From Balanoglossus misakiensis (Eukaryota > Animalia > Hemichordata), in the NCBI GenBank assembly GCA_040954595.2, contig CM082577.2, forward strand, positions 11,813,654-11,877,653: 64,000 nt of DNA, in the 5' to 3' direction. The number at the start of each line of letters is the position of its first letter. Within the stretch, counting starts at the first letter, position 1. Below, piece by piece: positions 1-64,000 of this stretch. Under the pieces are notes generated by a model. The model saw only the letters and a program-made list of their open reading frames with translations, ran no database searches and was not told the origin of the DNA. The translations under genes and the position numbers were made by a program.

Positions 1-130
1 AATATAAAGCAAGGAAGGGACACCCCAACCCGCGTACAGCTTTACAAATGCAATAAACACTAGGTAAAAAAACCCGAAGTGTTTGAACAATAAAAGTCTC
101 TGGCACTATACTAAAAGTCTCTGGTCACGT

Positions 131-814
131 CTACGTCTCATGCCAAATCTCTCCCTGGCGTTAGTGGAATGCTCTCTTCCGGGCTCAGCTCGGGCAGGTG
201 CAGGTGGGCCTTCCGGCTCTCTTTCTTCGGATGTCGTCTCTTTTTCTTCGGGGGCGGCGCGGCATCGTCTTCGCCGTTGGTCTTTACCCCCCTCCTAGAC
301 AATAAAGCTGGGTATGGGCAGGTGGCCTGGTCCCATGCTGAACGTTAACGGCTACTGTACGGGCGCAGAAGGAGACGGTCGCTGCCGCTGGCGGCCTCCT
401 CGGTTCGGTCGGCAGCTGCAGAATGGCCCCTGGCTCCACAGGTGGACTAGGAGTTGATGTTGTGGCCGGGTTCAGCAGGTAGTATGTTCGCTTGGTATTT
501 GTCTCCGCTTTGATGACTCCATGGGAGTATTGGCGGTGAGTGTGAGAGTCCTCCACTCTCTCCACCCGATTGAGATCGAGTGGGGCGAATACATCACCAT
601 GACGGATGGGTTGAGGTGTTGACGATCGGCGCCGTGTGGAATCTGCGGATGGGGCTGGATCTGCCTCGGCGACGGACACGGTACTGGTAGCTACGCTGCC
701 GGTGTTTCGGTTGGCGAGGCACGGGTGTTCGTTGTACTCGAACGAGTGCTCAAACACACAACCACACCTAACACAAATTCGCCTCCCTGCTTGGTCCCGC
801 CTGAAGGAATTCAT
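131..814 (-). CDS. Small intronless ORF of unknown function; N-terminal CxxC..HxC motif, likely continuing past a G-run frameshift or splice into a C-terminus with a PPKKKRR NLS-like motif
   Basis: ORF 284..814. A TATAAAAAGG box lies on the minus strand near 891-900. The shifted frame from ~286 to stop at 131 reads VKTNGEDDAAPPPKKKRRHPKKESRKAHLHLPELSPEESIPLTPGEIWHET*. Confidence 0.4.
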
Positions 815-968
815 CGTTTCGTACTCTCGTGGTTAGTTTCTGTGCTTGCCGGATCGGGTGAGAAGAGCAACGTTCCCAGCTCATCGTTGCCCTTTTTATA
901 CCGTTATAAGAAAAATGCATAAAATGTTCGAAAATGACTGAAGTCTAGTAAAGAGTTCAATAGTAACA

Positions 969-1128
969 TTACTCGTCGTCTCTCCCCGATGTCCGTGGCG
1001 GCAGATTTAAGTTTTCTTCGTCTTCGGGGCTGGCATGGCTGGTAGTTCCCTTCTTTGCTGATGGGGCTCCCCTCCTTCTCTTCTTGGTCTGGGTCCCCGG
1101 GGTGTTGGCAGGTGGCTTGTTGGTCTTC
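969..1128 (-). pseudogene. 3' fragment of a basic NLS-bearing ORF, paralog of 1835-2040
   Basis: TNKPPANTPGTQTKKRRRGAPSA...PEDEENLNLPPRT; near-identical DNA to 1835-2040 with an internal deletion. Confidence 0.4.
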
Positions 1129-1834
1129 GTTGTTATTATTACGTTGAGACTGGTCGGGTGATCAGTAAGGGTAACGACCTTACACCCGAGTGATAGAGTG
1201 CACAAGGACAAAATAATAAAGTGTAGAAGCCAACGTGGCGTATTTATTAACTGTGAACACGAAAAAACGATCAACAAAACTGCCTAAAATGAAGAGCTGT
1301 ACCTTTTTAAATGTTGCTGGTGTGGCCTCGGTAATAAAACCCCTTGAGCGACTCCCCTTTTTAAAAGGTATTGCTATTTATATACCCTCGGGTCGGATTC
1401 AAAATTAGAAAAGCTAATTTGCATATCGGACGTCGGAGAAAGCACCAAAAATCTACATATCATGTCGGCTTCACGCCATGAAAAGTAGCTAAATAAATGA
1501 TTGACAGCTGTCGCTCGAAGTCGTCGTTGCTAAACAACCAAAGGCAAACATTGAATGAAAACTGAACGTGCGTAGTAACATGCTAATCGGTTTTGGCGCG
1601 TGTGCCGCGCCGGCTGAGTAATTACAAAAACCGCAAAGGCATTTAGAAACGTAAAATGGGCCTCGTTAAACCACTACATTACCCCCCTCTAAGACAATAA
1701 AGTTTCGACTATTGTACAAGAAAAAAGTTGAATCGCAAAATGTTTTTAAGGGAAGGGACACCCCACCCCGTACAGCTTTACAATGAGATACGAAAAATGC
1801 ATAAAATGTTCAAGAAAAAAGTTAAATAGTAACA

Positions 1835-2040
1835 TTACTCGTCGTCTCTCCCCGGTGTCCGCGGCGGCAGATTTAAGTTCTCTTCGTCTTCGGGGCTAAA
1901 CTCTAGTAGCTGTAATCTTGGTCGACCGGTGGTGCTGGTTCTGGCATGGCTGGTAGTTCCCTCCTTTGCTGATGGGGCTCCCCTCCTTCTCTTCTTGGTC
2001 TGGGTCCCCGGGGTGTTGGCAGGTGGCTTGTTGGTCCCTT
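1835..2040 (-). pseudogene. 3' fragment of a basic NLS-bearing ORF
   Basis: Same peptide as 969-1128. Its downstream flank (ggaagggacacccc..cgtacagctttacaa, ~1750-1785) is also present at ~12-48. Confidence 0.4.
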
Positions 2041-2050
2041 GCTGAACGGC

Positions 2051-6100: not shown

Positions 6101-6744
6101 ATACAGGTACACTTCTGAACAATATTCAAGGGCTTCTCCACTGTAAATGTTCGGCCAACCTGTGCGGTCGGTCAATGGCCACTTAATTACAGAGCTCTTT
6201 GAGAATTATAATAAATATACCAATGAGTACCACTGATACAGAAGGCTTACATACCAGTAGGGAAAACACATCTACCCTGTAACTTGGTGCGTCTTGCCTT
6301 GCTTGCTATTGTTGACAACCGATTTCGCAGCGCCCTTTTTATGTTGGTCTCCTCACAGTACTGTAACCTGCAAAATGCACATTGATGTAAAAGTCAATCA
6401 TATTCCAAACAAGTGCACCTACTGCTCAGTGAGATACAGCTGTATAGGAATAAAGAGTCCAAAATGCAACTACTCGAGTGAAGAATGAATATATAGTATT
6501 ATATTCTCATCCAGACATAGATTCATTTTTTCATAAGAATATGTTTCAGCCTGGAATCAAATATATTTCTTCAAAAGAATGACACAAAAATGTAAAAAAG
6601 CTTGAAGATGCCTGTTCTATAACCAGGTCAGACTGTGAACATTAACAGCAGCTTCAAAAAAGCAACCTTTGGTACATTCATTATTTTAGTCAACTGTTTT
6701 TGAGGAATCGGTCAAAATAAAAGAAACTACAGGCGTCTTACAAG

Positions 6745-7669
6745 TACGTGTATTAGGACGTTGATGTTCTTACGTCCCTCGTACTCATTACTGAGTTGGG
6801 TTAAGAGCTGGATTTCCTCGGTCGCCCACACCGAGGATCGTGTCGTGACTCCGGATGTTGTTGGAGTTACCCGTGGGCAACCCACGTTTCTCTTCGGCCT
6901 TAGGCGGTGGACATTGCACAGGGATGGGAATGCCTGACGTGTTGTCCTAGGCCGGACTTGGTCTTAAATTTCATGTCGCATTCGGTGCACGGGAATGGTT
7001 GTGGGCTTACACTGAAGCCGCTTCGCACCTTGCATTTTGCGTAGTGTGTTGCCACACTTCGCATGCTGTCACTGATGCGATCGCATGCAGAGCATACGTA
7101 CTTGAATGAGTCGTACTTGTGAGAGGATAGGTGACGACGCAAACCTCGGTGATCTTGAAACATCGCTCCAGGACAGAGGTGACATTCAAGAGTCTCCGTA
7201 TTGGGATACGCGATCAAGATGGCTCCCATCCCATCAAGGATGTATCCATCTATATTGCAGTGGTCCCTCCCTACCGCTGCATGGGCCGAAATCGTGTCCT
7301 CTGCTGCAGGCGCCCTCCCCACAGCAGACATCAGGGCCGGGATCGGTTCGTTAACAGTGTCAGTCCGAGTCATTTGTTCATTTTCTGTTACAAGAGGCTT
7401 TGGCTCAGCATTCAGGGAGCAGCACCTCGCTCATGCCATTCCCGCACTCGTTTGAATTTCTTCACTTTGATATTCTGAGCACTGGGCAAGTGCGTATAGT
7501 GGCCGTCCTCGAAAGTTTACCTACGACTTACGTTGGGCTGTAAACCCGCGGTAAGACGCCCCCGAGCGTTAGTTCTCTGATTGGCCCACGCTGTGGTTGA
7601 TACAGTGCGGATACGGTGTGGTCAGATTAACAACTCTCGCCACGAGAAGGCCCTCAGGGGAAGAGAGTC
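6745..7669 (-). mobile_element. 5' fragment of an R2-type non-LTR retrotransposon: 5' UTR, three zinc fingers and a Myb-like domain; no RT or endonuclease
   Basis: ORF 6900..7373 has CHLC..H..H, CSAC..H..C and FPCTECDMKFKTKSGLGQHVRHSHP. Beyond its stop, SVWATEEIQLLTQLSNEYEGRKNINVLI is an R2-type Myb motif. The 5' end begins GACTCTCTT, matching 28S sequence upstream of the R2 site. Confidence 0.85.
7577..7669 (-). ncRNA. HDV-like self-cleaving ribozyme fold at the R2 5' end, possibly degenerate
   Basis: Hand fold: P1 GACUCUC/GAGAGUU with G1-U wobble; P3 GCC/GGC around L3 UUCUCGU; P4 closed by CCAC/GUGG; J4/2 GCCAA; P2 CUGA/UCAG. Confidence 0.65.
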
Positions 7670-7885
7670 TTCAAGAATCACTCTTGCTTCGTCGTATGCC
7701 CCTTCACTTCTAAGTAGAAAGCATCCAACTACTGCTTCTTTGGCAGGACCGCCTAAATATTTCTTCAGGTAATGAATTCTTTCAAGTGGTGGTACACCTC
7801 GCGATTCAACTAGGGTCGTGAATGATGATATCCAATCTGGATAAGCGAATGGGTCTTCCATGAATATTGGTGGTTCGGGTGTAGT
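7670..7885 (-). mobile_element. BEL/Pao LTR retrotransposon gag fragment (DUF1759-like)
   Basis: PEPPIFMEDPFAYPDWISSFTTLVESRGVPPLERIHYLKKYLGGPAKEAVVGCFLLRSEGAYDEARVILE. Confidence 0.8.
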
Positions 7886-8047
7886 AAGTGATGGAGGAGG
7901 TGGAGGAAACGAACGAAAAACTAAATCAGAGTCGCAACGAAACTTAGAAAAAGAAGGATCAGAAAATGAGCGAGAAAGAACAGATGGTTGATAGCAAGAA
8001 AGAGAGGCAGGTGGGGAATTTAAAAAAGGGCGAGACAGATCACGAAC

Positions 8048-8830
8048 AGAAGAGCTACGGGCCAGACTACACCGAGAGGACAGCCCAACAAAAGGAACTC
8101 TAGAGAAAACAGGCAAATCATAAGGACAATCATAAAAAACTGCTAGGATACAGGGAGAGTCTGCTGCTCTGGGAAGAGACATAACTTAAGTCTTAAATAT
8201 ACTAAAAAAATGGCCCGAAATCAGACAAAGAGTTTAAGTAGAAAAAAGAGCCGACCAGGGGTGCTGTATAAAGGTAAATTTGAACTGCTCTCTGCTGCTA
8301 CTGCATTAATCATGTCATTAAATAAATATGGAGACGTGGCATTGTGCATCAAGTTAAACATGTCAATATTATGAACACTGATTTGACTGCTATTTCAAGA
8401 CTGCACATTCCAATAACTGCCGCAAGGCCGCTCTTGCTATTATGTTGACGGTACCTGTGAATAATTTGTTGCCACTCTCGTCTATTCTTGGATATACATA
8501 TCTGTCAAATCAATCACTTCTTCGTCTCAGTTCCCTTTTTCATACATATAGACTGTATGAAGATTGCGGTTACTTCTCTTTTTGGAATAAGTGATATGGC
8601 TATAAAAGGGCAGTTTATGGTTGATTGGAAAAATCACTCCGTTGTTTCATTCTTCTTTTAAATTTATGGTGTTGCTTGGCACAGTCTTGGGATCGTCTGT
8701 TTGCAGTAAGTTGGACATGATTTGATTGTACCGGGTATTTCAGCACTGATTGTGCCATATTAAGTACAACCCAATCCCAATATGATTTGGAGTTGACCTT
8801 GGTCTTTTCTACCTGAAAAAAATAAATAAA
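8048..8830. repeat. Dispersed duplication of ~17733-18490 (with indels), including a minus-strand exon-like piece
   Basis: Long shared blocks such as gctacgggccagactacac and gactgcacattccaat..., plus the shared peptide KVNSKSYWDWVV. Confidence 0.7.
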
Positions 8831-9732
8831 ATTAAAGCTGCAAGCAGCGACGGCGGGGCCCAAGTGGTTTCCATGTCTTTTGGTTCTTGTAAACAAGAAT
8901 TTTGAATATCATATTGTTTTTGTGAAAATGAATATGGCTGCTACATCTAATGACTAATCCACATGACTTGTACAAACTTCAAGTACCCATGTCAGGGATG
9001 ATATTAGAAACATTTCAGTTAAAATGGTGAGTTGCTTCTGAAGAAGGAAATTTTGGAATATTATTTGCTGGTAATCATGTGTTTTGCACAGTGTTTGCAC
9101 AACTTGAAGCGTCGTCGGCTTTTGCATGTGTACTGCCACGTGATCAATCACGATGCTGCGTAAATATGGTAACAGGAACCCGGGTAGTAGTTTATTTACC
9201 TACTACCCGGGTACAGCCTTTTTTTCTCGTGAAAAAGCACATGGGGGCATTCTCTGCTGACAGCTGAACAGTATATCGTGGTTTTTAGTTTTTCTTCTTT
9301 CCTTTTATACAGATTCTACAGAACATCCCATTGTCCTGGAAGTACAACCAGTGCCATGTGGACAGCCATCTCTCCTGTAGATAGAAGAATTCGCCCAATA
9401 TGATTATTGATAATTACAGTGTGGATTTATAATTAATAAAGTTCATTGTCCAACAATTTTCATTTATCCCGGTTATGACTCCCTTGCCATTTCGACCGTG
9501 GGTAAATTTGAGTACAGAATGTATTATCCCCAAGGTTGTTAAAAAATTAAAGTGATACCGCTAGATTTTCGACTGTTCATGAACTCTAGAAAATCGAAAG
9601 TCCCCCCCCCCACCAATACGCTCGTACTGTATATCGTACTGCCATCTCTCCTACCAACAAAACGCTTAATTGTTCGTACGGCATGTCAGTCTTACAGACA
9701 AAATGCTATTATTACCGAAACAACTAGAAATT

Positions 9733-11172: not shown

Positions 11173-13681
11173 GAAGTTTCGACCACCCCTCCAGTGATAA
11201 TCGACGAACCATTGTCAAAGAATGCGCACAACTATGCGCAATGCATTTGTACAACGTTTGTAACAACAACAGCAGCAGTAAGTACGGTTGAGGGCGCTTT
11301 TCAAATTAGAGTTTCGTCTGCTGTCTGCTATCAACTTTTTTTCACTGCAAAGTAAAAAAACAACAATATTTGCCCAAATGAACAACAGATTGATAATTCA
11401 AATGGTATTTTGTGCAAAAAAATACTTAATAAATTTGAGAAAAATGGGGGGAAAAACTCGCCGCGCTGCCAAGTTCTTACATGTATGTTGAGTGTGTAAC
11501 GTACGTGTTGTAGTACATGTAGTACCGTTTACTTTTGACGTTTACAAAAACACTTACTTGTTTGGGTATCTTCTATCATTACTGCAATTAAAAACAGCAC
11601 ATCGATCTCCTCCACCCATATTTACCACTATTATAAGTAACTGAACCTGTTATTTGGAAACAAAAATTACCCCGCGCTGCGCGGCCGGCTATCATTCGCA
11701 CAAACGGGACGCTGCACTGTTGTATGTTGCGGGGCAACAGGACAGTGCCCCCAATGCCCCCACAATGCACCACGCGCTTTAAAGATGGCGGTACCCACGA
11801 ACGGACTACCGGTATGGTGTACTAATTAGTCTAGATTGGCATGTGTACTGTTTGCGGTCTTGTTGCTGTTGAGGATTAAATTGTGAGGATTGTAAGGAAG
11901 TTTAAGGTCTGTATGTGTTCTATACTTCTCATTTCATCGACAGTAATACTACAGTCATCTAAGTAAAAGCCCACAAACTGGTTCACATGAAGTTGATGCG
12001 CGCCGCAGATCATACTTACCGGTATAACAACAATAACACAGCCCTGCTAGTGCTTGTTAAAACAGCAACTGTCTCTCGAACGTCATCCAGCTGTAATGTA
12101 AAGGAGCTTGTCAGTGGTTTCATGTTTTTATGATTGCTGCGAGTCCGTATAGGGCTGCATTCGCAAACCCCTCTGGAGGGGGGGGGGGGGAGAATTCAAT
12201 TTGTTCAACCATGCTGGAATCTGCGTACTTTCTTTAATTTCAAGACAGTTCTTACAGTCATTTGGGGAGTTCATTGCCTGGTCAATCAAACAGCACCCCC
12301 TTACAGCTGAATCAGCCTGCAGTTGTGGAAATGAAGATTTAACTCACTTCTGTATTAAGATTCAACGATTAAGCTGGGCTGCTGAGTGCACAGATGAGGG
12401 CCATTTACCCACACGTGGTCTAAGCCAAAATGTATATTGTGTTCATTCATTTATTCATTGCATCAATATATTTTGTCTATCCCCAGCCTCCTGAAATCAT
12501 CTCATCTGCTGTTGGCCTTTAGCCTGTGCCAATTGGCAAACAGAGGCCACGTGGGATTCCTGCCAGCCCACCACGTAAAATTTTTGGTCTACTGGTCGCA
12601 GAGAAGTGTATCTGCCTGTCAACACAGATGCCAGCATGAATATGTGAGTGTCTGTCCTTGTCTTTGCTTAATTGAAAATGCCTACTTTAGATCTGTAATG
12701 AAAATTAAGAAAGTACCCCATTTTTTCTGTGAAATAGACATTTAATTGGCACGCCATCTAGCATCAATTAGTCAGCGTGTATGCACTGAAGCACACACAA
12801 GGGGCTTTGCATGGTACATTGTTTATATTTATTTAAGTATTTGTATTCTGTGTTGGCAGACATTGTAAACTGAGAAGTGAAGGGGGTGTAGAAAATTTTA
12901 TAAAATACATAGCTCAAAGCTGCATTTTAATGAACCCAAAAGCAAATTAACTCAACTACTGGTATGTTGGGGAGGACAAATCTAACCTTCACCGCTCAAA
13001 GTCAGCATTGGGGTGGGGGGGGGGGGGGGCAAGTCTCCTGACCTGTGACACTAGATAAACCAGTCAATGATTGAAAGGTGTTGATGAATTTCGGGGGTGG
13101 GTGTGGGATGAGAGTAAAAATCTTGTCAAAATGAATAAATGCTTGAGACAGATTATTCATTTTGGCGAGTTTATCACTCTCGTGTCTACAAGTGGGATAG
13201 ACGTTGTGTATGGTCGAACATTGATTCACTATATATCCACATGGAGAATAACATAAGCAGTGTCTTGTATCATACATAATTAATGGAAAAAGGGCAGCAA
13301 GAGAGAGACTTTATCCCTTTTAAGTAACCCCACAACACTAGGCAAAACTTCTAGTACCGGTACGGTAGGGCAGCCAGAAGAAACGTCGAGGGGGCGGGGC
13401 AGCTTCATACTGTTTTTTTGTGATCGATGCCACATTGTTTTCGTGATACACCAGGCTGGTAATTCACATTGTTAATTGATGTCATTATTTACTTTTTCAG
13501 GAAATTCACGAATACGAAGGTAATGATCAATCACTTCATTAATTGATACTGAAATTTGCCCGGATACTTTTGATTTGTTTATCTAGTGACCTGAGCATCT
13601 ACAAGAAGCTAAAGTTCTGTAAGTAAATATTACTTAATACATTGTATTTACTTTTGTCCTTGCTTGTTTCTTATTTTGCAG

Positions 13682-16260
13682 AATGCATGTTCCATTGTAG
13701 ATATCATTTATAAAATGATATTAAAAAAGGAGACTGGAAGTAACATGGTAGGATGTTCATATTGTCCAAATTTCAAGCCAACATTTCCCAGTAAACTGAA
13801 AAAGCACGCAAAAGCTCATCAGAACAGTGCAGTGTCAGTGCCAGAATTAGGTAAGCATTTTTTAGTTTCTGAATAATATCAGAGATATCTTCATCTGTGC
13901 TACATATGACAGATTTACATGTACTTTTTGGCATTTGTAATGAATGTAAATTTCAAGAAAAAATGGGAAATTACAAATACACATGGATATGTTATTAGTA
14001 CATGTATGACTGGTGATTGATTAAAGTTCTTGTCTTTCGGAAGAATCCAACTTTTTTGTCATCCCATTACAACTTACTTGAATATAATGGCACTACAAAT
14101 GGACTTAGTTTCTTTTATGTTTATGTTTGCCTACCAGAAGATCCAGTTCTTGCCTGTCATTTAAAATGTCGAATTGAAAGTGGACACAGTGAGGGAGATG
14201 GCCATGGTCATTACCACTGTCCTCGATGTGAAAGAACATTGTCACGCAAAGATAGATTTGAAAAACACTGGAATAAAATGTGCAAAAGCAAACATACAGG
14301 ATCGGAAGCTGGTAACACAGGGTATATTTGTGAGTTTCATACATAATAATGGTTATTTCTTGTAAGTTTATAATACTAATACTGTTTATGTAACCATGTT
14401 TATAAATAATTTAGGTGGCGATAAATGTTACATACATATTTCTCATCAGAGACAATGTCAGAACTCCACAACAGATTTTTTTTATAATGCTGAGTATCTT
14501 TGGTACAGTTTAGTTTCACCAGAATCAGAAATTTGTAACCCACATTTAGATATACAAACCTACCTAAAACTGAAATTTGGCAGAAATCATTGTTTTAAGG
14601 TACAATATCACCTGTCAATTTGTCTTGGAGGTATGTGTATTACAACTGTGACATTGGAAAAATTCTGATCTCTAAGAATAGTAGATGGCGTATAGTAATT
14701 GTAGATTGCTAAGCGAAATAGCTAATATTTTCTCCACTTACACATATGTTTTTTTTTACAAAGATGACACTCTGCCTACAAAAATAAAGGATGGGAATGG
14801 CGAATCTGCGAAGAAAAGATGTCTACCAATGCCAATAAGCCCTGAATCTGGAAAAAAGAGACGACAATCAGCTCCCTCTGTCACACAAATGAAGGGTCCA
14901 GCTTCTGCGAAACGTAAACTGGAACAAACACAAGGACCTCCCCAAAAGAAGGCATTTGTTACATCAACACAACCTACTGATTCCCCTGATAAAGATTTCC
15001 CCTTGCAAAATGTCTATGTAAGTTAAAGTTTGAATCCAGCGTTGTACTTTGATGTGTAGGAAGAAGTATTTCGGATAAATTTTCACCAAGTGAAGAGGTC
15101 CAATATTCCTTTTCACTGACTCGTTATTTGATCTTTTTTCCAGTCTGGCTCTGGAGGCACAACTTCTGATGAATGTTATACTGATACAGGAAGAACGATA
15201 ATGTTCCCATCAACAGAAGTTGAGATGTCAACCCCAAATGATGGTCACAGAATAGACATGTTCCGCGTGAAGTTTAACACAATATTAACATTCATGACAC
15301 AAGTGAGTTAATTCAGGAAATTTCAGTTTCTGAGATAGACATTGTGTTCAACTGTATGGTGTGCTGTTAGGTGCTCATGACTTTGAAAAGACTTACAGAT
15401 GAAGAAAGATTATTTGCAGATATGCTTCTTTTAGTATCGAGTTTTGAATAAGAATTTCAGAACTTGATACGGTAATGGCAAAAATAAGTTCCAGGCAACA
15501 ACAAAGAAAAAAAAGCGGTAAGCCACAAAAGCAATGGAAGTGGGATCATTTTCAAATCCTCTAGTAAGCTTGTATTTTACTCGTACTCAAACTTTCAAAG
15601 ATCATTCAATGTACCACTGAACTAACAAACCATTTGTCAAATACAGGAATCTACCTACGAAACTGATAGCTCTTTCGATTTTCGAGCATCCAATACGGTT
15701 GAGAAAACCCTATCTTCCCCACACCCATGGAGGATGTTGGATAGAAAAGAACAAGTTGCTGCTCCAGATATGTCCATAGCTCCAGATCCAGTTATGTTCC
15801 CAGGAACTAACCAAAAGCCACCCTGGCTATCTGGGTACTTCCCTGAACATATACAGCTAGAGACTGACTATGACAACATCAGAACACTTCCATCTGAGGA
15901 ATTTGGTACGTATATAATTTTTTTCTTGTGAAATACCTGGATTTTAATCTAAGTAAATGGCAGTTACACATGGATGTATTTCATGGTAGTGTTTCCCCAT
16001 GATTCGGTCCAAATCTGTTGGTCCTACGGTAAGATTGAACGTAACCTCTATACAGGGAAGTGGGGGAGAAATATTGCCAACTATGTGTTCAAATCACGTT
16101 GTTACTTCAGTTTTGATAAACATATTAGTGTAGAGTCAGGCGATTAATATATATCCTAGCTTTAAGCCTTCATTGCAGTAATACCATATCTTTTATTTTT
16201 TTGCAGGGTGAACCAATTTATAGCCATCTTTCGATCGTCGATTTATGTGCTCATTTGAAA
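13682..16260 (+). CDS. Multi-exon gene or gene relic with C2H2/Cys-His zinc fingers followed by a basic, low-complexity region
   Basis: GT-AG bounded exons at about 13682-13850, 14138-14321, 14764-15017, 15144-15302 and 15647-15906. Peptides CSYCPNFKPTFPSKLKKHAKAH and LACHLKCR..HYHCPRCERTLSRKDRFEKH. AATAAA at ~16915. Confidence 0.55.
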
Positions 16261-35430: not shown

Positions 35431-35434
35431 TGTA

Positions 35435-50150: not shown

Positions 50151-52366
50151 TGGCCAAATACAAATCAATACAATCAATCAATCAAAAGAAGCAATACCAA
50201 TCAATGAAAATAATTCAGTTTACACATGGCAATTGAAACTGGATGAAGCAATATTGACCACATCTTTCTCAGTTAGTCTTTTCTGACCTTTCGATATCAC
50301 TGGTCCACTTGTATTGTTAACTGCTTCTGTATCATTTTTGCGTTTTGACTTCTTACTGCAAGTGGTGACTTTGTTTTTGTTTACCTATCTTCCAAAGCAG
50401 TAGTAGACTTTCTTTTACAGGAAATGTGCTCTCCTTTACTCTCATTTTCTTTTGAAAGTTCATCCATGAACATCCGGAACTTTCTCGCTGCGCCTCTCTT
50501 CCCACTTTTTCCGGCTTCCTCCAAATCGTTCTTACCTTCTGTCAGTAACATTTCCACTCGCTCTGATTTTGGAGTACCGTTTACGGTACATGTCAAATTT
50601 TTTTTATATCTTGCAAGTTTTTCTGTGCAAGACTGGAATGAAAACATGTCACGGTACATGTAAGTAAAAGAGAAATAAAAGAGGGTAATCCCCATCAATA
50701 TAACTACAAATGTGTTTCGGTCACAATGGATTTTAGAATTTCAATAGCTCATGCACCACTTAGGGGCTTGGGGGCCGGTGGTTCCGCGTTGGGTTGACGT
50801 GCGACATGTTTTGAACAATCCACGGTATAGGGAACATGACATCCGCCTCTCTCTGTATTTGGAAAATCCATCCCCAGTTTCCCTTGGATTTCGCCACGGA
50901 GTATTGGTCTAAGAGTGCCTCTTGGGCTTCTCTTCTCGGTGCCATCATAATTCCGTGGATTACATCCCGAGGACCAAGTGGCTCTTTTCATGTCATCTAT
51001 GGTCAACTTAATTGGGCATTGGTCTGGGCATGTTCTCGCACGGTCACCAATATGCCTGTAGTTACCACTCTCATGGTCGCTAACCATTATCCCTCTCTCC
51101 CACTGAGATGGACGAAAAACATGACGAGGGGTCTGTCTCCTGAACGAAACCTGTGAAGGCAACAATTGATTATTGCCTGACTCTTACTTCCACTACCCTT
51201 ACAGCTGTGTGAGCGGGTAGTCACCTCTGCCAATGAAACATTCACAGGAAAGACAGGTGCTGTAACCTCACATGTAGGGATATCCGATTTCAACCTCTCA
51301 TGATTAAGTCTGTCAATAAGTCTGACCTGAGCATTTTGGTAGCCTGTCACACTTTCAACTGCCAATTCTGTACTGAGTGTTTGGTTAGTTTTCAACCTAT
51401 TGAATTGATGCAATCCATATGATAAGTAGATGAGATGCATTTGTGCTTTGGTGAATTTAGACAATAGGATCCATGACAGTACAAAGCAATACAATCAATG
51501 AAAATAATTCAGTGTACACATGGCAATTGAAACTGGTTGAAGACAGAGACCTTAACATTAACATCAAAGTTTATGGTGTTTGTCAACAATGTAACTTCCT
51601 GTTCTTCATCTTGCCCCAGACATCCGCAGCCTTGGACACATCAAACTTCATTATGTCTTCTCCTTCCACACTAATGAAGAGCAACTGCCTCAGTGTCCTT
51701 TCAGCAAGTCTGTTTGCGAGAGATGTTTTAATCCTGCCAATTATATACAGTGTGTATACTTGTAACCAGCTTCCGTGCCTCCACACTAATGCCTTTACCA
51801 ATCTCTTTAGGGCAGCAGGGACAGTGCCTCCATTTCTCTTTCTTCTGACCGGCGTATTACTGTGGATCTTCCTTGGGGCCTTCAGTCCGCTCAACCATAT
51901 CCTGTCCCCCTGCTTCAGAGAGACAGGGGAGATCCCTGGTTCCGCCGAGCTGGGCTGCGGCTCTGAAGAGCTGGGAGGACCCCACCAACCGGATGCGACT
52001 TCTTGGGTCTCGTTGTCCTTGCCACTCTCTATGGTGCGCCGTATGGGTAGATCGGGTTGTGTTAGCAGGCGGATGTCCCTGCACATTCCTTGCTCGGCAT
52101 ACTCAACCGGCATCGCCATCGCCTTTTGGGGGCGTGGGGGTTGGGGGTTCGTGTGTGGCATGTTTTCGACAATCCAGGGTATCGGGAACATGACGTCCGC
52201 TTCTCTTTGTATGTTGAAGATCCACCCCCCAGTTTCCCTTGGATTTCGCCAGGGAGTATTGGTCCAAGATTGCCTCTTTGGCTTCTCCCCTCGGCACCAT
52301 CATGACGCCATGTATTACCTCTCGGGGGTCGAGGTGACGGCATGCCCGAGTGGCTCTTCTCACGTC

Positions 52367-53497
52367 ATGGTAATAATGAAGCGCTTATGTGTCTTCCAAG
52401 GGTGGGAAGTGCCAAACCGATTCAAACTCAGCACCCCCAACACGCCGGCAATTCTAATTCATTGGCAGGTCCTCAGCATACTGCTGAGGTGGGTACCCCA
52501 ATCACGGAGGGACGAGTTCCGAGAAATCCAACCCCGCATGAGATCGTCATCGCACCAGAGGGAGGAGAGTCGGGGCTATCTGAGAGAACGACAGGAACGG
52601 CAACCAGAGAGGATGGGGGCAGAGGAAGTCGCCCGGGCTCCATCGACGCAGGAGAGGAGCGAGGACACGCCAGGGGGTTTTGATGCATTTTTTAACCCCC
52701 AAGCGTGCGCGGAGGAGTGCCGAGTGGAAGACGCGCCCACCACCATAGATGACCTCACTGACTACGATGTTGGTGTCCTTCCAGACTATCGGATCCGACT
52801 CCTCGGAGGCCTACAGGTATTCTCCGAGCCAGATCGATACCCGGACCCGCTGCCGGGGGAAAAAGATTTTCCAATAGCCCTTGGAGTTAACCCACGAGTG
52901 GCACCATACATGACCAAGGACCAACGCCAGACCGTCGGCGAACTCTTACAACACCCGGACGTGGCCGCGCTGGGAGACATCGGCCTGGAGCGAACGGAAG
53001 ATCCCTCGACCTGGGAAGCCCAGGACAAAGTATTCACAGAATTGCTCTGCATGAACCGGGGGAGGAAGCCGGTGGTAGTCACCGTCAGAGGGATCACCGC
53101 AGATAGATACGACAGGGAGACGGCAGCCTGGACTCTTCTCACCATGACGCGCCACTGTGATGAACGCCAACAGATCCATCTCCGGGATTTCAGAGGGTGC
53201 GTAGAAACCATGGGGGACTGGCGGCGGTATTTTCGGGACACCTATTTTGGATTTTCGGCAGCCGTCCGCCAGTTCGACGAACGGCAGGTGGAGGCAATGC
53301 AGGCCATCCCGGAGGACAGAATCCTGGTGGAGACGGAATCACCCGGCGGACGTGTGTGGGAAACACTGAGAATGAACACCCCAGCCTTCCTGGGAGACGT
53401 GGCGCTGGAGGTGGCAAGGCTGCGTTGGAACGTCCACCCGACAGCTGCTGGCGCAGACGTCCGAGAACGCCCGCTGTCTGTACAGGCCCTAGACTGA
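52367..53497 (+). CDS. TatD-fold protein copy D: uninterrupted ~376-aa frame with non-canonical active-site residues
   Basis: ATG at 52367 is in frame with ORF 51473..53497; GVNP, ALGDIGLE, PVVVTVR, IHLRDF, YFGFS, IPEDRILVETESP. Confidence 0.8.
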   Translation: MVIMKRLCVFQGWEVPNRFKLSTPNTPAILIHWQVLSILLRWVPQSRRDEFREIQPRMRSSSHQREESRGYLRERQERQPERMGAEEVARAPSTQERSEDTPGGFDAFFNPQACAEECRVEDAPTTIDDLTDYDVGVLPDYRIRLLGGLQVFSEPDRYPDPLPGEKDFPIALGVNPRVAPYMTKDQRQTVGELLQHPDVAALGDIGLERTEDPSTWEAQDKVFTELLCMNRGRKPVVVTVRGITADRYDRETAAWTLLTMTRHCDERQQIHLRDFRGCVETMGDWRRYFRDTYFGFSAAVRQFDERQVEAMQAIPEDRILVETESPGGRVWETLRMNTPAFLGDVALEVARLRWNVHPTAAGADVRERPLSVQALD

Positions 53498-54087
53498 ATG
53501 AGCAGTGAGATTGCAAGCTGCCAGGAAATGTTAAAGTCCGTCATCGCTGACAGTTTTGTCTCACATTTCTCTAGTAGTATTACGATAGTTGTTAAGTTAG
53601 TGGTTAAGGCATGCATCGGTCGCTTAGTGTAGGTATTATACATGCGGTCGGTGCACTCACAAGTAGTACGGTATTTTCCCGGCCCCTGTAGGGCGAGTCA
53701 TGGATCATGACTGGGAAAAACAGGTAAAAGTTAAGAGTACGATGTTGCTGACGAAATAAAAAGTGGAGACAGTCCACAAAGGCCCACCAGCTAAACCAAT
53801 ATCTCGATTTTAAAATACTGCATTTCACATGCCGGGGTAGTTATTGAAGGGGGGGGGGGGGGGGGTACTTGAAAAAAAAATATGTCTGCTGCTAAAATAC
53901 AGTCAGCAATGTCTTCATGAACAGACATTCAGTACTCGTCTGCGCGTGTATAATACCTACACTAAACGACCGATGCTTGCCTTAACCACTAACTTAACAA
54001 CTATTGTAATACTAGAGAAATGTGAGACAAAACTGTCAGCGATGACAGATTTTACATTCCCTGGCGGTTTACAACCTCGCTGCTCGT

Positions 54088-54470
54088 TCAGTCTATGGCC
54101 TGTACAGACGGCGGGCGTTCTCTGCTGTCTGTGCCAGCAGCTGTCGGGTGGACGTTTCTCTGAGCCTCGCCACTTCCAACGCCACGTCTCCCAGGAAGGC
54201 TGGGGTATTTATGTGTTGCGTTTCCCACACGCGCTCGCCCGGGCGATTCGGTCTCGACCAGGACTTTATCTTCAGGGATGGCCTGCAATGCCTCCACCTG
54301 CCGTTCGTCGAATTGCCGGACGGCCGCCGAGAATCCGAAGTAGGTATCCGGAAAATACCGCCGCCAGTCCCCCATGGTCTCTACGCACCCTCTGAAATCC
54401 CGGAGATGGATCTGTTGGTGTTCGTTACAGTGGCGCGTCGGATGGACGTTTCTCTGAGCCTCGCCACTTC
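54088..54470 (-). pseudogene. TatD-fold protein copy E (3' part only)
   Basis: TRHCNEHQQIHLRDF..KVLVETESP. Confidence 0.8.
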
Positions 54471-55081
54471 CAACACATACATTATAACAATACAATACTT
54501 CTTTAGATCACGCTTCCAAATGGACATTTTTTCCAATCGATCTTTGGTGCACTCGCTCAAAATGTTCACGAAAACTCTTCCCACATCTTCGCCGAAAGAC
54601 CAAAATGTCAAACTCATGGTTGGTGGTTGGCAAAATAAGTTTGCAGCACAGAGGACGCTCGAAACAAAAGTTGTTCACTTTCGAATTGATGTGATAATTA
54701 TGAGTTTTGCTCACTACACTGCTGCGATGCGACATGAGTCGATAACAATGCAGGGGTGGGTGGTTAGTTGATGCGTTCGTATTTGCTTCATTTTTTTCGC
54801 CGCTAACTGGGGGAATCTTGCCATCTGGGTCGTATCAGCGACTTCATACTAAATGAGGACACGTCAACTCACCTAATATTGCCGCCGATACAGACGGAAG
54901 GTATATTTCTGTCGTAGATTGTGGACCAATTCTTCTGGAATTCGAAGAGAACGATAGTGTTTCTTGGTATCAGGAATCAGTCTGGCGTCCCTCGCCTTCA
55001 TCCGGAGATCCTGGGGCTGAGTATGGGATCCCCGGGCTGACCCCTAGGTCATTAGGTGATTCATCTGGGCGTTGGGGGGCT

Positions 55082-56340
55082 TCAAACCCCCTGATACAAC
55101 ATCTGTGGGGTAGGGTTTACTGCCGGAGGAATGCACGCAGCGTCGCTGAAAACAGGTCCCAGTAGTTGTTTCGCGAGCATTGTCGCAGCTTGTATAAGTT
55201 CCTCATCCGATATTTCATCAAGTTGCTCAAGATTAAAATTCAAATCAAAATCTGACTCTAGCCTTTCAGACATGGTGGCCGGCTGCATTTTGAGCTCTTC
55301 TTGATGTTTCAAAATTTGCACGAGCTGATGTTGTATCGGTGACTCGCCTCGTGTAGTCGTCGACTCGATCGGGAAGTAGAAGTAGTTCTCGATAGTATTC
55401 GGTAGTTGTGATTGATGCGCTAGAACAGCAAGGCTGATAGACTGGTGGCTGGCTGGAAGTTGGCTGATAGACTGGTGGCTGGAGAATATGGCTGGTTGGT
55501 TGATGGTGTTGTGACGTTTCCAATGATGGGGCCATGCTTATGTTAAATGAAGCGACTGATATGTCCATGGGGATGGGGTGACTGCAGGTGTGAATCACTG
55601 GCTGGAACTCTGGCTGCTCGGGTGTAGATGTCCTGAAAACTAAAACAAAGAAACAAATATTAACATTGACATCTTGGCAGACCCTGGAGCGATCTCTGCT
55701 TAACATTAAACTGAGTGGCCGGTTTAGCTTATTAAAAATATTATTTTTATTATTATAAACTTTATTTCGGACTCATGGTCCATATTACAATGTACATAGT
55801 ACATATGTAATCAAATCAGAGGTTTGTTGGTCAAGGGTTTATAAAATGTTCACTCACCAATTTCACTAGATGAATCGCCATAGGCCATGAAAAGTTGATT
55901 CATGGCATCCGGAATATCATGTACATCTACCGTTACCAGTTGCTCGAGGGGCTCATCAGAACTCATCAGAATATTTGTGTCACCTAATAAAAAAAAAAAT
56001 ACAAAAAATGTGTTATACTATGTTTGACAAATGTGTGTTGAACAAACTGCATAACAAATACTATTTCAATTATCATAATAATTTCATAAATTATGTATTA
56101 CACTCACCAGTTTTTTCAGATACATTGTAAAATGCATAGCACGCCCTGATGGTTTTCTTCATTATTTCAGTCCATCCACAGCCACCTGCAGTCCCCGGTT
56201 TGCTCAGATTGACGTAGGGTACATCAGCCGGCCACCAGTCTGGTTTCTTGTCATCCTTCCCCCAAAGTGGATGACCGCGCTTCTCCGTGTTGAGAACTAA
56301 CTTGGGAATCAGGTTGCGTAAACGCTTATCATTCAGCTTT
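55082..56340 (-). pseudogene. Spliced NRF1/EWG-like gene fragment: DNA-binding exon followed by Q/P/S-rich and acidic exons
   Basis: ~56107-56340 reads KLNDKRLRNLIPKLVLNTEKRGHPLWGKDDKKPDWWPADVPYVNL..WTEIMKKTIRACY. GT-AG bounded exons follow at ~55858-55983 and below 55632. Confidence 0.7.
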
Positions 56341-58261
56341 GAAACAGATCCTAGGAGATAGTATTTATGCTTGTTCTAGGGAGCCTATTTTTTGCTCAGT
56401 TTATGAAGTCAATTCTGCTGCCACATTTTTGAAAACTGTAAAAGTTTCAACATTCTTCCATTACGTCCAGAGATATGACCAAAGAGTTGACACAAACAAG
56501 CTTGTGATTGTGTTCATTCCCTGAATGTTTGAAAAAAAAGGCAGCCGAATTGACCCCTCACAATCCTGCTTAGTTTACCTCGAATCAGACGTCCCTATTT
56601 ATGTGTGTGATGCATTGTAATCGTACAGTCTGATTCGAGACGGTGTACGTGTTTACCATATTACACTTGTCTGCACATTACTTGGAAACTTTCACCACAA
56701 AAGAAACAGCATGTAGGTAGATGGTTTGTAATATTGCCGGCCTGAGGTAGATAAGTTTTTCACCGATTCAGATTTAGATATGCACAGTTGACAATAGTAT
56801 GCAAATCCTCATCTTGGCCCCCTACTCCGATGGAAATGTAAACTTTAAACATGCAGACAGTAAATAAGGAAACAAGTACATCAGCAGAAATAAACTGAGC
56901 TTACCTTGGTGTATGTAGATCAAAGTACACAGCCATGATGTAAACTGTAATGTCACTTTATTCAAAATTATCAATTCGTATCTGTGAAGAAAATCAGTAA
57001 AATATTGCTATTAATTGTAAACTCCCATAAATGTAGATAAATAGAAACATTGTATTAACCCTATTAATAAAGCGACAAAACCAGATAATTAATTGAAAAC
57101 TGAATAATATCATAGAAAGTAGAAAGCAGACATTTAGTGGTTAAACAATTTAAGGCAATTCTAACGTTAACGAAGCCTATTCTTCTCCAAGAAATGCCCT
57201 TCTTCTTCTTTCGTCCCTCTCCATCCAATATTCCCATTTCCCTTCCCTCCTATCTTCTAAGCATCGCTTGTAATATGCATGGTAACTATAGTATAGCTGA
57301 TTTTCAATGGGTGACCGTATACCTTTAACATGAATTCAACTCCATAAAAGTGAAGAAGCATGAGTGTCCTATCGGCAAATGCAAAAAAAAAAAAAAAAAA
57401 ATACTTGTGTTTATTAGAAAAAATATTTTAATCCAACCACCAGCAAATTCAAATTTTATGTTTTTTAGTTTGAAATAGAATGGTTTCTATGGTTGAAATA
57501 AAGGGTTTCTATGGTATATCCCTGTTGAGTATTTGACAAATGTATTTAATATTGCATGTATTAATTATGGTGATTTAGATGAAAATATTGACAAAATCAA
57601 ATGTGGTACTAACCATCATTAAAGTCTTATTAAGCATGCCTTCCAGATTTACATCCCTAATTTGGAAGTACGGTCTCCACAGCAGTTTGTTAAGTTCCTT
57701 TATTGGAATCCCTCTCGTGCTTTGACTTCTTAGGAGCTGTATAGATAAAAAAGACGAATGAACCATGTATGACTCGAACATAAAGTATGCAATTATGAAC
57801 AAAGGCATACTATGCAGGTCTCGGCTCCAGACGACCGCCGCTCCATACAAATCGACAACTTTACCGTATTTTTGGTAGATTAGGGAAAATGTCTACAGAC
57901 ATATCTGAAAGTTGAAAATTTAAATACAGAATACATCTCGATTTTAGAAATATGGTATTATGCAAGGAGTATTTTTAAATTTCAAATTCCAGTTTGTGAT
58001 GGGAAACGAAGGGTTAAAATTGGATTGAAGAAAAAAAGTATCTACTACATACTCTCTGTCGTATCTTGAGGCGTGGGTTCTTCCTCTTCTCGGAAATCAC
58101 CTGTATGGGGAGTTTAAGTACAAATTGTTAAAATCCAGAAAGAAACGAGCACTTAATTAATCCAAACTTGCAAACCATTTATTCTGCATTTATTTAAAAG
58201 CGTATCTGTTAAAAGCAAAAGTGACATAGTAAAACGGATATCAACTTACCTGTCAAAAGCA

Positions 58262-58816
58262 TCATTTTATAGAAAGAACAGCATGATGCCGCTGCACTTC
58301 CCTTCTAAGCATCTTGGTCCACTGGCCACGGGGTCCTTGTTTAAGTTCTGCGGGCGTCTCCGACGGGTCGCTGAACGGCACATCACTCGGCCGCCACTCC
58401 GGAGCGTTGTCCTGCTGGCCCCAGAGGGGGCGTGAACGGTCAACGGTCTTCCGGATGATGTCCGGCACTAGCTTGCGTAGCCCTTCATAAGCCATTACGC
58501 TTAGGGTACAACCCCATAGCGATAGCGCGACACAGTCTGGAAGGCGTTTGGGGTTGTCACTGTCACTGGATGGTGTTGAGGCTGTTGCTGTGGACACCGG
58601 CGTCGTGTTGCTGTTGGCGATGATGGTTGGCATGGATGCAGTGATCGATGATTGCAGACCTTCGCTGCCGTGAACGATGAACTTTCGCTCACCGGTCAAA
58701 CGATCTACAAAAGTTGTCACTGTGGCGACCTCGAGAGACGTCTTCTTCGAGAACATGTCGACCTGGCTCGACAAAATTCTCCAGCTACTGGTCTGCTTCT
58801 TGTTTAAACTCTCCAT
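58262..58816 (-). CDS. NRF1/EWG/P3A2-like DNA-binding domain protein, divergent
   Basis: LRKLVPDIIRKTVDRSRPLWGQQDNAPEWRPSDVPFSD..QWTKMLR aligns by eye with NRF1 LRAFIPEMLKYSTGRGKPGWGKESCKPIWWPEDIPWAN..SWTQALR (recalled sequence). Confidence 0.75.
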   Translation of the reverse strand: MESLNKKQTSSWRILSSQVDMFSKKTSLEVATVTTFVDRLTGERKFIVHGSEGLQSSITASMPTIIANSNTTPVSTATASTPSSDSDNPKRLPDCVALSLWGCTLSVMAYEGLRKLVPDIIRKTVDRSRPLWGQQDNAPEWRPSDVPFSDPSETPAELKQGPRGQWTKMLRREVQRHHAVLSIK

Positions 58817-60099
58817 TGTGATGCGTGTATTACTCAGAATTACGATGTAATGACATGAACTAGAAAGTTTCCCATATTTATATAGATTGCAACAATGAAA
58901 GGTGACAAACATGATCTTGACCGCACTTTCGCGATTGCCGACAATGCCGCATACACATTCACACTTTCATAATGACCTTTTTGGTAACATTATCATAGAG
59001 TGTGATTGACAGGATCGGCCCCTTTGACTCTATTAGGAGGTGGATATATCAGATGCACCGACCGTTTATTCCAAGTGCCGCTAACCGATTAATAATAATT
59101 ATAAACGTGTGAATGGGAGTGGTCGGTACCTTTGGATCATGCTTAGCGAAAGGCGTCGGCAGTATAGTGGGGCAGTTAACCAAAAAATCGTGCACTTTGG
59201 GTTAAAAGCATGAAACTTGGTATACTTATGCATTGACCCATGGCGGACATTTTCCAATATGGATCCCAAAATACACCGCCCTCTAGTGGCCAGAAACTGA
59301 CATTTACACTTTTTCCCCCATTGATGGAACGTTTTGGTCAAGTTTAACACTCAAACACAGGAAAGTTGGTTGTAAAACATGATTGCTACCATACATGCCT
59401 CTGTATATTATCCTAATTTTGGAACTCTTATATTGCCCTGTTCAATAATGGCAAACTTTGTGTGCATAGTATCGCCAAAATTACAATTAAATATCAAAAT
59501 TTGTAAACAGATGTTTTGGTTGTCATGAACATAGAATGCTATGAGGTTATCACTTGATGTCATATGTTCGTTGTTAGCGATCTGTGCTGTACAGAAGCTA
59601 TTTTCACTTATGATGCTGCTCTCATGAAAGTACTGCCGCAGAATACACTGCCTATGGTACATATCAGATCATAGTACATTATCATTGTCCAAACTTTAGA
59701 TGAAACTGGTTCAAACACTAACAGTACTAAAAATTATAGGCAATTAATCCACCTATCTGATAAGCTTTGTGTAGATCTCCATTATGTACTGACAGATGAT
59801 CTGTATGCTCTACCACTAGCACTAGTGCTGCATTTAGAATTAATGCATATCGTAATGTCTCTGTCAGACATTATGAGTGTGTTCCGGGCATATTCTAGAA
59901 CAAAAGATGAAGACATTTTAAGTGATTTGTCCTGTAGCGTTGAAATGAAGTTTTGTTGAGTGAATGGAATTCTGGACTTTGCAACAAGTTCTTTCCTGAG
60001 TTCAATCCACTTCTTCTTCTCTAGAAATATTCTCATTATTCCTGCATTCGCTCTACCAGGATCCATAACTTTTCTGTCAGAATTCGCGGTATTTAAATT

Positions 60100-61257: not shown

Positions 61258-61521
61258 TTAGCTGTCAAACCTCAGGCTTTGTTCGCTTATGATGGCATTT
61301 AGAGGAGATATGATGATAATCGTCACTGCCCTGTTCTCTCCAATGTAGGGAAGGGACTCAAATATAAGTGTTTTCCCGTAGACTTTTGGCAGGACACCAA
61401 TGCAATCACCATTCAACGATGCCTTCAGACAGTCTAGTAGTTGCTTTGGCTTGTATCCATAGTATGGTACAGATTGTTTCTTATTAAGGTTTGCCAAAAG
61501 CATATTTAGTTTTGCATACAA
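61258..61521 (-). pseudogene. RecQ-like helicase N-terminus (Q motif, Walker A, motif Ia), AcademH-like
   Basis: KPKQLLDCL..DCIGVLPKVYGKTLIFESLP..IIISPLNAIISEQ. Confidence 0.7.
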
Positions 61522-61649
61522 ACTTCAACTTTGAAGTTAGCGCCATGTTTTTTACTTTTTGCCTCCAGCCGTTTCTGTGTTGGGAATACCTTTCTGCCAA
61601 TCACACTGCTCGTATTTATTAACCTCCCAGCAGAATAACAAACCACACA

Positions 61650-62520
61650 ATTGCGCCACATGTCAGTGTATTCCAAGCGATGGTCAGGTAGTTGCCTAAA
61701 ACAGTATGTTATTTTCGTGTTGCCTTACGGTAACATCGACAGCATTGACCTCGCTTGGATTTTGACTATCCACCCCCAAACCCTGTAGCTGTCGTACCAG
61801 CAACATCGCTTTGGTCTTTGTAATTGTGGATTGTCAGGGTATTTACTCCGCAAATATTGGAAAAGAACATAGGAATCACCATATCAATGAAATGATAAAA
61901 TAAAGTTTTCCACCTCTTTTAGTCGATCTTAAAACATTATACTTCGAAATTACTTGATCAGAATAGCCTTCGGTTGTCGAACAAATACACGCCAAAACCT
62001 CCCATTATCTTTCCGGCGTCTTCTGACAAATCTGTGATCATCTCCACGATGGATTGTGGACATGACACACACTGGTCTATTGTCTTTCCATTGCTTTGTT
62101 AAGACTTGCCCATCCCTAAAATATCGCATCCCACCCTGTTGTGTACTCCTCTCCCACTGTGGATCTTTGAACAAAAAAGGAAACCCCCGCCTCGTCTTCA
62201 AAACAGTCCCACAAGATAGTGTCCCATGATCATAAGTGCATTTAGCAAATTAGGTGGTGTATAGTAATTATCAAAATAAACCTGGTATCCCTGCGCATTA
62301 ATTCTTTCACCTAATCTCATAATAACATCATAACCCAACTCATTCTCAGCTGTCATCAATAGGACATCAGCGCGATGAATAAAGAAAAACTTACCTTGCA
62401 CCACAACGATTGACGGTTTATCGGTTCATCTCTGCCGGATTCTTCTGACGAGTCAGTTGAAAACTCATCGAAAACATCATCGGAGTCACTGCTACTTGAA
62501 CTTTCACGGTCACTCATCAT
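61650..62520 (-). mobile_element. Internally deleted piggyBac transposase
   Basis: Acidic N-terminus; LGYDVIMRL..GYQVYFDNYYT; KQWKDNRPVCVMSTIH..VRQP.AI. Confidence 0.85.
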
Positions 62521-63254
62521 TGTACAATCAAAACAAAACTTCCGAAGACTCAATGATGAATATTCTGCAGATAATGAATAATTCAGTTAGGTTGCAAGTC
62601 ACTGCGTAAATATTTGAATAAAAAATGCGCTGACTAATTTGCATATTTGCAATCGGAATTTTTTCGGCGCAGCAGAAAACGCATCGAACTGCTTTATAAC
62701 AACTACAAGTTATGGAAAAATATTCTGTATCTTCAATTTGTTTAACAAATTCCACCAATCTCTTAATTCAAACTCCAGGAATTGATGGTATATAGTCACA
62801 CCCTCCTAAAACACTGAATGTAAATAAACTTCAGGAATGACCATTTCTCCATTTCAAAGCACTTCTGAAGTTCACTGGCATCAACCATAAAGTGCTGTTC
62901 CAAACTCGGTATCGGTTTTGGTGAAAACCTGTAATCATATTTGGAAAACAATATAACTCAGAAAATACTACTACATGACATACTTTCTATTGTAAGCAAA
63001 ATCCAAAAATGTTAAGATCGTCATACTTTAACTAGACTAATGACACTTTAATACTCTAGCTGCTCCATAAGCAATGACATCAGAGTCTATTGTGATGATG
63101 CCATAAACTTTGCCACACATCGACAAATAGGCCGTCTGGGCATCTGCCTCATATGGTGCAACTATGTATTCTACGTTATGTTCACGAAGACTCTATAAAA
63201 ACAGGCGTTTTTAATTAATATAGAAAATGTGTATCTGTTTTCTGTTACAGACAG

Positions 63255-63530
63255 CATACTTACTATTTTTTCTCAATGGCAAAGGCGATGTTGGTGGTGT
63301 GGGCGTCAACAGCTCCTCCCCCAAGTACTTCACAAAGTTTGCTGGGAATGACCCAGCAAACTCCCTACCTCTGACTGTACCAATAAGCCATCCTCTTGGC
63401 TGTTGAGGGGTACTATGGAACTTCCATGGTAACCCCCCAACTTCAATGATATCATCCGTTTTCATAGACAGTTCAGTACTGCTCTCTGCAGTAAAAGTAT
63501 GACACACTTTGTACAGGAACATTTTCTTTT
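63255..63530 (-). pseudogene. SH3 domain resembling that of the PI3K regulatory subunit p85
   Basis: YKVCHTFTAESSTELSMKTDDIIEV..GWLIG..GSFPANFVKYLG..PTPP, with a long n-Src-loop insert and a Pro-rich tail. Confidence 0.65.
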
Positions 63531-63774
63531 GGGAGATGAATAAAGACAAAAGACAACTTACAAGTCACAGAAACAGAGGGATTCATTAGTTTCATGACTT
63601 TATTATAATATGCTTGGTGTGAATCCTGCTTGCTGATTGGCAAGAGCCAGGGTTTATATTCTCGCAAAAAAATGGACCAAGAACAGTGAATTGAAGGTTA
63701 CCTAAACCAGACACTTTTTTTCTCAAAATGGACAGTTTACTTACAAATCAGATGTGGTTACTGAACATGTGTTC

Positions 63775-64000
63775 TTAATTAATATAGAAAATGTGTATCT
63801 GTTTCTGTTAAAGACAACATGCTTACTATTTTGTCTAACTGGCAATGGCGGCGTTGGTGGTGTGGGCGTCGACAGCTCCTCCCCCAAGTACTTAACAAAG
63901 TTTGCTGGGAATGACCCAGCAAACTCGTTACTCTCACTTTACCAATAAGCCATCCTCTTGGCTGTTGAGGGGTACCATGGAACTTCCATGGTAATCCATC
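63775..64000 (-). pseudogene. Second, tandem copy of the SH3 fragment, running off the window
   Basis: Near-identical to ~63211-63435, offset ~565 bp. Confidence 0.65.

Follow-up and report, generated by a model that had tools for sequence, protein, structure and literature searches.

Comparison with described one-strand clusters

The flamenco and flam-like clusters of Drosophila, which are sources of PIWI-interacting RNAs (piRNAs), share their layout with the stretch analysed here, 64,000 nucleotides (64 kb) of the hemichordate Balanoglossus misakiensis (GenBank assembly GCA_040954595.2, contig CM082577.2, forward-strand positions 11,813,654 to 11,877,653). This whole stretch is called the window below. 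According to the accessible part of van Lopik et al. 2023 (PMC10643416), the Drosophila clusters are long gene-poor blocks with transposon fragments nearly all on one strand, and strand bias by itself served to predict flam-like blocks in that study. One-strand piRNA clusters in general are recognised by dense small RNAs of 24-32 nt with a 1U bias that map uniquely to one strand, and by a long precursor made from one promoter; flam-like clusters are in addition expressed in the somatic cells of the gonad and lie away from centromere and telomere. The same arrangement is seen in the window, where 11 protein families are found only on the minus strand, against one gene on the plus strand. Transposon remnants are many and intact genes few, as in one-strand piRNA clusters, with one possibly intact plus-strand gene of about 2.5 kb. 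However, the Drosophila bias is driven only by Gypsy elements with long terminal repeats (LTRs), whereas that of the window is carried by DNA transposons, pieces of long interspersed nuclear elements (LINEs) and intron-bearing gene pieces, with no Gypsy domain found (only one weak BEL gag piece). The locus is therefore laid out like flamenco, but it is not to be filed under flam-like clusters, and "flamenco-like", the term used in the preliminary description made from the sequence, was too strong.

1..64000, no strand assigned: patchwork of gene and transposon fragments with a shared polarity, open at both ends and thus perhaps extending past the window

In content, the piRNA clusters of the molluscs Lymnaea and Crassostrea are similar. 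As given in the available part of Jehn et al. 2018 (PMC6128900), they are enriched for Kolobok, hAT, R2, BEL and Academ, families which are seen or suspected in the window. Those clusters were defined by small-RNA data and the window by sequence, and orientation bias of insertions is not reported in that part of the source. One-strand loci also occur in planarians, as type A (Seed) and type B (Spread) clusters (bioRxiv 10.64898/2026.01.28.702291, accessible part). Transcripts of the Seed clusters, antisense to transposons, are poorly polyadenylated, which would make plus-strand AATAAA motifs such as those of the window tolerable. Seed clusters differ in that the transposons they oppose are LTR elements and that antisense genic sequence is depleted in them, while planarian DNA transposons lie mostly sense, in type B. 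Marmoset pachytene clusters also hold host-like gene copies antisense in a one-strand locus; these are processed pseudogenes in the portion of PMC4105748 available, whereas the pieces in the window keep introns and splice sites. One-strand clusters are in the majority in Nematostella, 402 of 457 (PMC5731801, accessible part). Additionally, transcription favours antisense insertions in introns, DNA transposons included in some animals (Sela et al. 2010, PMC2911107, accessible part), but no spanning host gene is visible within the 64 kb. A targeted literature search for hemichordate piRNA clusters gave no such study among the matches listed, and the word "piRNA" is absent from the hemichordate genome paper (PMC11175523). 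Nor did the matches listed in the literature searched, whose coverage leaves most subscription papers outside, contain a report of polarity carried by DNA transposons.

Strand polarity of the window

Frames of at least 50 amino acids, read from stop to stop on both strands of the window (n=530; 239 plus, 291 minus), were compared with Pfam at E<1e-3. Matches were obtained for 26/530 frames, 24 on the minus strand and 2 on the plus strand. Both plus-strand matches are TatD (47788 and 51461), each an arm of inverted duplications. Once duplicates and neighbours had been collapsed, 11 families remained on the minus strand only and none, by Pfam, on the plus strand only (11/11, p=0.00098). The 11 families are R2-type zinc fingers, KolobokP (HNH and transposase), leucine-rich repeat (LRR), Merlin/IS1595, Myb/SANT, pogo/Tc5, RecQ-Zn, Nrf1-like, piggyBac, XPG-I and SH3. 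TatD was left out of the family count, as it stands on both strands through inversion. A fair strict count also includes the plus-strand zinc-finger gene, and 11/12 are then on the minus strand (p=0.006); this binomial test with duplicates collapsed, which had been called for earlier, shows an unbalanced orientation for the 64-kb window alone. The RecQ and XPG pieces possibly belong to one Academ element, and when they are merged the count becomes 10/11 (p=0.012). With motif-level pieces, mostly recognised by motifs in their translations, about 19/21 are on the minus strand (p=2e-4).

It can be seen that the one-strand bias claimed in the preliminary description is real, as is the wealth of DNA transposons it noted. 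Its figure of about 20 unrelated minus-strand fragments agrees only with the count that includes motif-level calls; the families confirmed by a tool number 10-11. Among its labels, R2 is upheld by solved R2 proteins, while Tc1, CR1, hAT, Kolobok, Sola2-like, OB-fold and the second piggyBac were confirmed by no tool, and its list lacked an XPG-I piece (63040-63192, minus, E 1e-15). The plus-strand exceptions it named hold and are as follows.

13391..16300, plus: the main exception, a zinc-finger gene of several exons, preceded by a GC box at 13391 (protein search)
16740..16935, plus: likely LINE-type 3' tail, a poly(A) motif and then a short repeat (sequence)
43599..54474, both strands: TatD block with three copies on minus and two on plus, the latter being one duplicated unit in inverted repeats (Pfam, self-comparison)

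Tests that use no annotation gave the same result. Outside the duplicates and the TatD block, open frames of at least 150 amino acids number 0 on the plus strand and 11 on the minus strand (p=0.001). GTAAG occurs 64 times on the minus strand and 36 times on the plus strand (p=0.007), and strong splice donors (MAG/GTRAG) occur 11 times and once, respectively, or 8 times on the minus strand after removal of near-identical duplicates. No Pfam match at E<1e-3 was found on either strand among 536 short frames of 33-49 amino acids (283 plus, 253 minus; three duplicated stretches excluded). Read-through frames, in sets of 24 and 30, yielded no further family at E<1e-3, and RecQ-Zn was found again in the first set. 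In a tblastn comparison within the window, the only clear distant paralogues were the Nrf1-like copies and one unlabelled pair, all on the minus strand, and the weak cross-strand rows resemble noise or palindromes.

Structure, duplication and decay

The pieces are about 0.1-1.8 kb long and their ends are absent. Splice donors and introns are retained in the helicase, Nrf1-like and SH3 pieces, and the pieces are therefore genomic copies rather than processed cDNAs. Self-matches cover 24,964 bp, or 39% of the window. Of these 71 matches, 55 are direct and 16 inverted, the latter being located in the TatD block (9) and in palindromes or arms of MITEs, miniature transposable elements with inverted repeats (6), with one more of 27 bp. 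Outside the TatD block and the palindromes, the dispersed repeats are direct. Junctions that can be defined are mostly blunt, with 0-2 nt of overlap. The direct repeats and local duplication imply that local deletion and duplication preserved and amplified the polarity; its origin in unrelated families cannot lie in local duplication.

Where copies differ by C/T, the difference has about double the frequency before G (odds ratio 2.2; 0.054 vs 0.025-0.027, p=1e-7), an excess which points to germline methylation. Germline methylation marks transcribed DNA in invertebrates, and the signal may thus lend weak support to transcription of the region. The GC content is mostly 35-45% and rises to 54% in the TatD block. 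No transfer RNA and no Rfam family at the gathering score was found in the window.

Possible origin of the polarity

The window is a graveyard of unusual polarity with a wealth of DNA transposons, and on sequence grounds a good candidate for a piRNA source. The explanation we lean towards, tentatively and at slightly below even chances, is that a long plus-strand transcript, antisense to nearly all of the fragments, is cut into piRNAs. Under this proposal, elements and genomic pieces would insert in both orientations, antisense insertions would be retained and sense insertions lost, and deletion and tandem duplication would then chop and amplify the pieces without flipping them. The plus-strand precursor would feed the piRNA pathway. 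As the coding strand of unrelated elements is tied to one direction, the simplest link between them would be that the region is transcribed throughout. The 11 minus-only families that argue for the proposal, against a single plus-strand gene, include four DNA-transposase superfamilies, which are not known to prefer a strand. Also in its favour are the long open frames found on the minus strand only, the direct orientation of dispersed repeats, the family mix shared with mollusc clusters, the one-strand majority in Nematostella and the antisense gene copies in marmoset clusters.

Several observations weigh against a plus-strand piRNA source. A depletion of plus-strand poly(A) motifs was expected, and the test failed, with AATAAA commoner on the plus strand (69) than on the minus strand (37; p=0.002). 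The longest stretch free of AATAAA is 3.7 kb on the plus strand and 9.4 kb on the minus strand, and no purge of plus-strand stop signals is visible. The excess can be explained by the U-rich introns and 3' ends of the fragments themselves, and it counts against an ordinary plus-strand messenger RNA. Moreover, a 2.5-kb plus-strand gene with in-phase exons lies inside the window, and Pfam found no reverse transcriptase, integrase or gag domain of Gypsy among the 530 and 536 frames. One-strand clusters of Rhodnius need not be polarised (PMC11614815, accessible part), so that polarity neither defines nor proves a cluster, and introns of ordinary genes likewise show antisense bias in the available part of PMC2911107. 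The window was also selected from very many.

That same intronic bias would also fit a plus-strand intron of great length, or a long non-coding transcript, without any particular piRNA output; sense insertions would have been purged from it because the promoters, poly(A) sites and splice sites that they bring interfere with transcription. We regard this as unlikely, but as a serious competitor. Antisense fixation in introns is described for LTRs and, in chicken and Drosophila, also for DNA transposons (PMC2911107, same part). The scarcity of strong splice donors on the plus strand agrees with it, and so does the CpG decay, if this reflects gene-body methylation, as we presume. However, the bias is near total over many families, the self-duplicated 39% of the window is recent and includes fold-backs of more than 1 kb, a separate plus-strand gene with its own GC box lies inside, and plus-strand AATAAA is not depleted. 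The zinc-finger gene cannot by itself account for the polarity, since upstream of it, too, there are minus-oriented pieces. An origin on the minus strand, from unspliced transcripts, from strand-preserving capture or as a sense-transcribed target ("spread") cluster, seems improbable. The minus strand does have the signature of a transcribed strand, with more splice donors and fewer AATAAA, but co-oriented gene pieces would bring that signature anyway. The pieces are short, abrupt and without termini, and planarian type B clusters consist mostly of sense DNA-transposon copies (bioRxiv 10.64898/2026.01.28.702291, accessible part); against this, neither an intact gene nor capturing machinery was found on the minus strand of the window, and the overlap at the junctions is that of ordinary repair.

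Chance combined with non-independence is given little probability. It would require a heterochromatic graveyard in which fewer founders than are apparent were amplified by tandem duplication, and an extreme window picked from very many. The strict tool-confirmed count of only 10-11 vs 1 (p about 0.006-0.012), the extent of self-duplication and the choice of the window among some 250,000 are in its favour. However, duplicates were collapsed ahead of counting, the motif-level pieces are also nearly all on the minus strand, and the long-frame test concurs. Least probable is one giant mobile element or a chain of them, Helitron or Terminon-like, with captured co-oriented fragments, a case which the preliminary description had set against its own interpretation. 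Host-like pieces with introns (SH3, LRR, Nrf1-like and XPG) would suit it, and such capture is known for both types of element (PMC6431247, accessible part), although maize Helitrons are reported there to reach 39 kb with at most nine fragments. The orientation of fragments captured by Helitrons is not settled in the available part of PMC4224331. Candidate Helitron 3' ends (a hairpin and then CTRR) were unconvincing, with one weak plus-strand match within the R2 piece and none on the minus strand. Pfam found no RepHel or Penelope domain in the window frames, and neither hammerheads (Rfam) nor tandem TTAGGG or TTAGG were found in the window. Helitron and Terminon termini are likewise missing in the window, and Helitron ends may lie outside it.

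If piRNAs do come from the window, hemichordates would have a candidate cluster whose flamenco-style polarity is directed at DNA transposons and is not, as in Drosophila, Gypsy-specific. The trap model would then be testable outside insects, and one confirmed case would allow strand polarity to be used as a cluster predictor in unstudied animals. If only a long intron or a lucky window is involved, the locus is ordinary. A wider and more doubtful idea is that acorn worms, and perhaps many marine invertebrates, might keep one-strand piRNA archives polarised against DNA transposons and gene families that contain introns, and not against Gypsy. Such archives would grow by capture and in-place reshuffling, could be found by sequence, and would yield fold-back hairpin RNAs.

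Pieces on the minus strand

The transposon and helicase pieces of the minus strand, from R2 to piggyBac, are listed first and the gene-like pieces after them.

6730..7430, minus: R2 retrotransposon N-terminal piece, zinc fingers and then Myb in a different frame (Pfam; PDB R2 9nl2, E 4.8e-8 and 0.0045)
7625..8185, minus: BEL/Pao gag-like piece (DUF1759), weak (Pfam E 0.0064)
9288..9413, minus: zf-C17orf113-like finger, weak (Pfam E 0.0028), presumably linked to hAT elements
20961..22666, minus: inner part of KolobokP, with residues ~198-654 of the transposase (654 in all), interrupted by two frame breaks, and then the HNH nuclease (Pfam and protein search)
25116..33958, minus: chimeric unit of ~3.6 kb (Merlin, Myb/SANT, pogo, 257-bp repeat, CR1-like piece) in ~2.5 head-to-tail copies at 94-99% identity (self-comparison and Pfam)
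35293..36468, minus: piggyBac-like and CR1-like reverse-transcriptase pieces, motif level only (translations; no Pfam or PDB match)
36920..37207, minus: RecQ zinc-binding domain, possibly of an Academ element (Pfam E 5e-6)
39800..40477, minus: piece of a RecQ-like helicase in which an intron is retained, at motif level only (translation; no PDB match)
40819..42359, minus: Kolobok-like transposase pieces, duplicated, motif level only (self-comparison, translation; Atlas gave no usable match)
61261..61524, minus: DEAD/RecQ helicase motif I piece, weak (Pfam E 0.013; no PDB match)
61953..62425, minus: piggyBac transposase piece (Pfam E 1e-6 and 7e-4)
24063..24578, minus: LRR gene piece (Pfam E 3e-5)
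45226..46309, minus: Nrf1-like gene piece, copy 1, intron-split (Pfam, tblastn)
56094..58966 (56094-56375, 58265-58966), minus: second and third copies of the Nrf1-like gene piece, with splice donors (Pfam, tblastn)
63040..63192, minus: XPG-I nuclease piece (Pfam E 1e-15)
63200..64000, minus: SH3-domain exon with a splice donor, duplicated at 91% (Pfam, self-comparison)

The normal target of R2 is 28S ribosomal DNA, and the R2 5' piece at 6730-7430 stands without ribosomal DNA anywhere in the window (0 Rfam matches). TALE rows in the PDB search of this piece were rejected as repeat-summed artefacts with 0 significant stretches. The KolobokP piece has 83% identity to its best relative and lacks the first 197 residues, yet its long open frame is kept. 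Its named relatives at about 50% identity are molluscan, and metagenome scans with its protein and with one internal junction gave no match. Within the pogo fragment of the chimeric unit a palindrome of 108 bp has arisen, and it was copied along with the tandem unit (26955-27062 and 30514-30621). PDB searches with the CR1, second piggyBac, helicase, Tc1 and DEAD pieces returned no relevant match; motifs visible in the minus-strand translations resemble those of CR1, Kolobok, hAT, piggyBac and RecQ helicase.

The three Nrf1-like paralogues are diverged (33-53% identity in aligned pieces), lie within 14 kb and differ in intron layout; against the Atlas, only a borderline Nrf1 match was obtained. 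A protein search with the SH3 exon found no relative. A tandem unit of 334 bp (2.3 copies, 2049-2810) with TTAA at its end adjoins a minus-strand terminus, presumably piggyBac-like. Two related MITE-like palindromic elements (5054-5408 and 13108-13327) are neutral in orientation. Coding-like minus-strand pieces with no label and no Pfam match are located at 284-832, 12100-12750 and 42548-43201, the last as two diverged copies. A piece of a helical host-like domain lies at 18750-18980 on the minus strand, with a weak CID match (E 0.002).

Plus-strand gene and TatD block

The exons of the zinc-finger gene at 13682-13850, 14138-14311, 14764-15017 and 15144-15302 are open and mutually in phase, and a later piece (15626-15928) aligns weakly to an acorn-worm relative. 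One exon gave 20 protein matches, and among the 7/20 looked up, 5 are from the acorn worms Glandiceps, Ptychodera or Saccoglossus, 1 is from a fish and 1 carries no name. The family, with its CHLxC...HYHC repeat, is expanded in acorn worms, and we suspect a transposon link. It may be a gene of the host, either intact or copied not long ago.

In the TatD block, one pair of fold-back arms (47241-50152) measures 1.29 kb at 90% identity, with a loop of 362 nt and 11 perfect runs of at least 21 nt, and another (53146-54439) measures 0.5 kb at 88%, with a loop of 296 nt. A transcript through these fold-backs, from either strand, could form a long hairpin RNA, a possible source of endogenous small interfering RNAs. 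The five copies of the TatD nuclease gene (44216-54474) are divergent, with two distant relatives only in the protein search, and TatD may be the cargo of an undescribed element.

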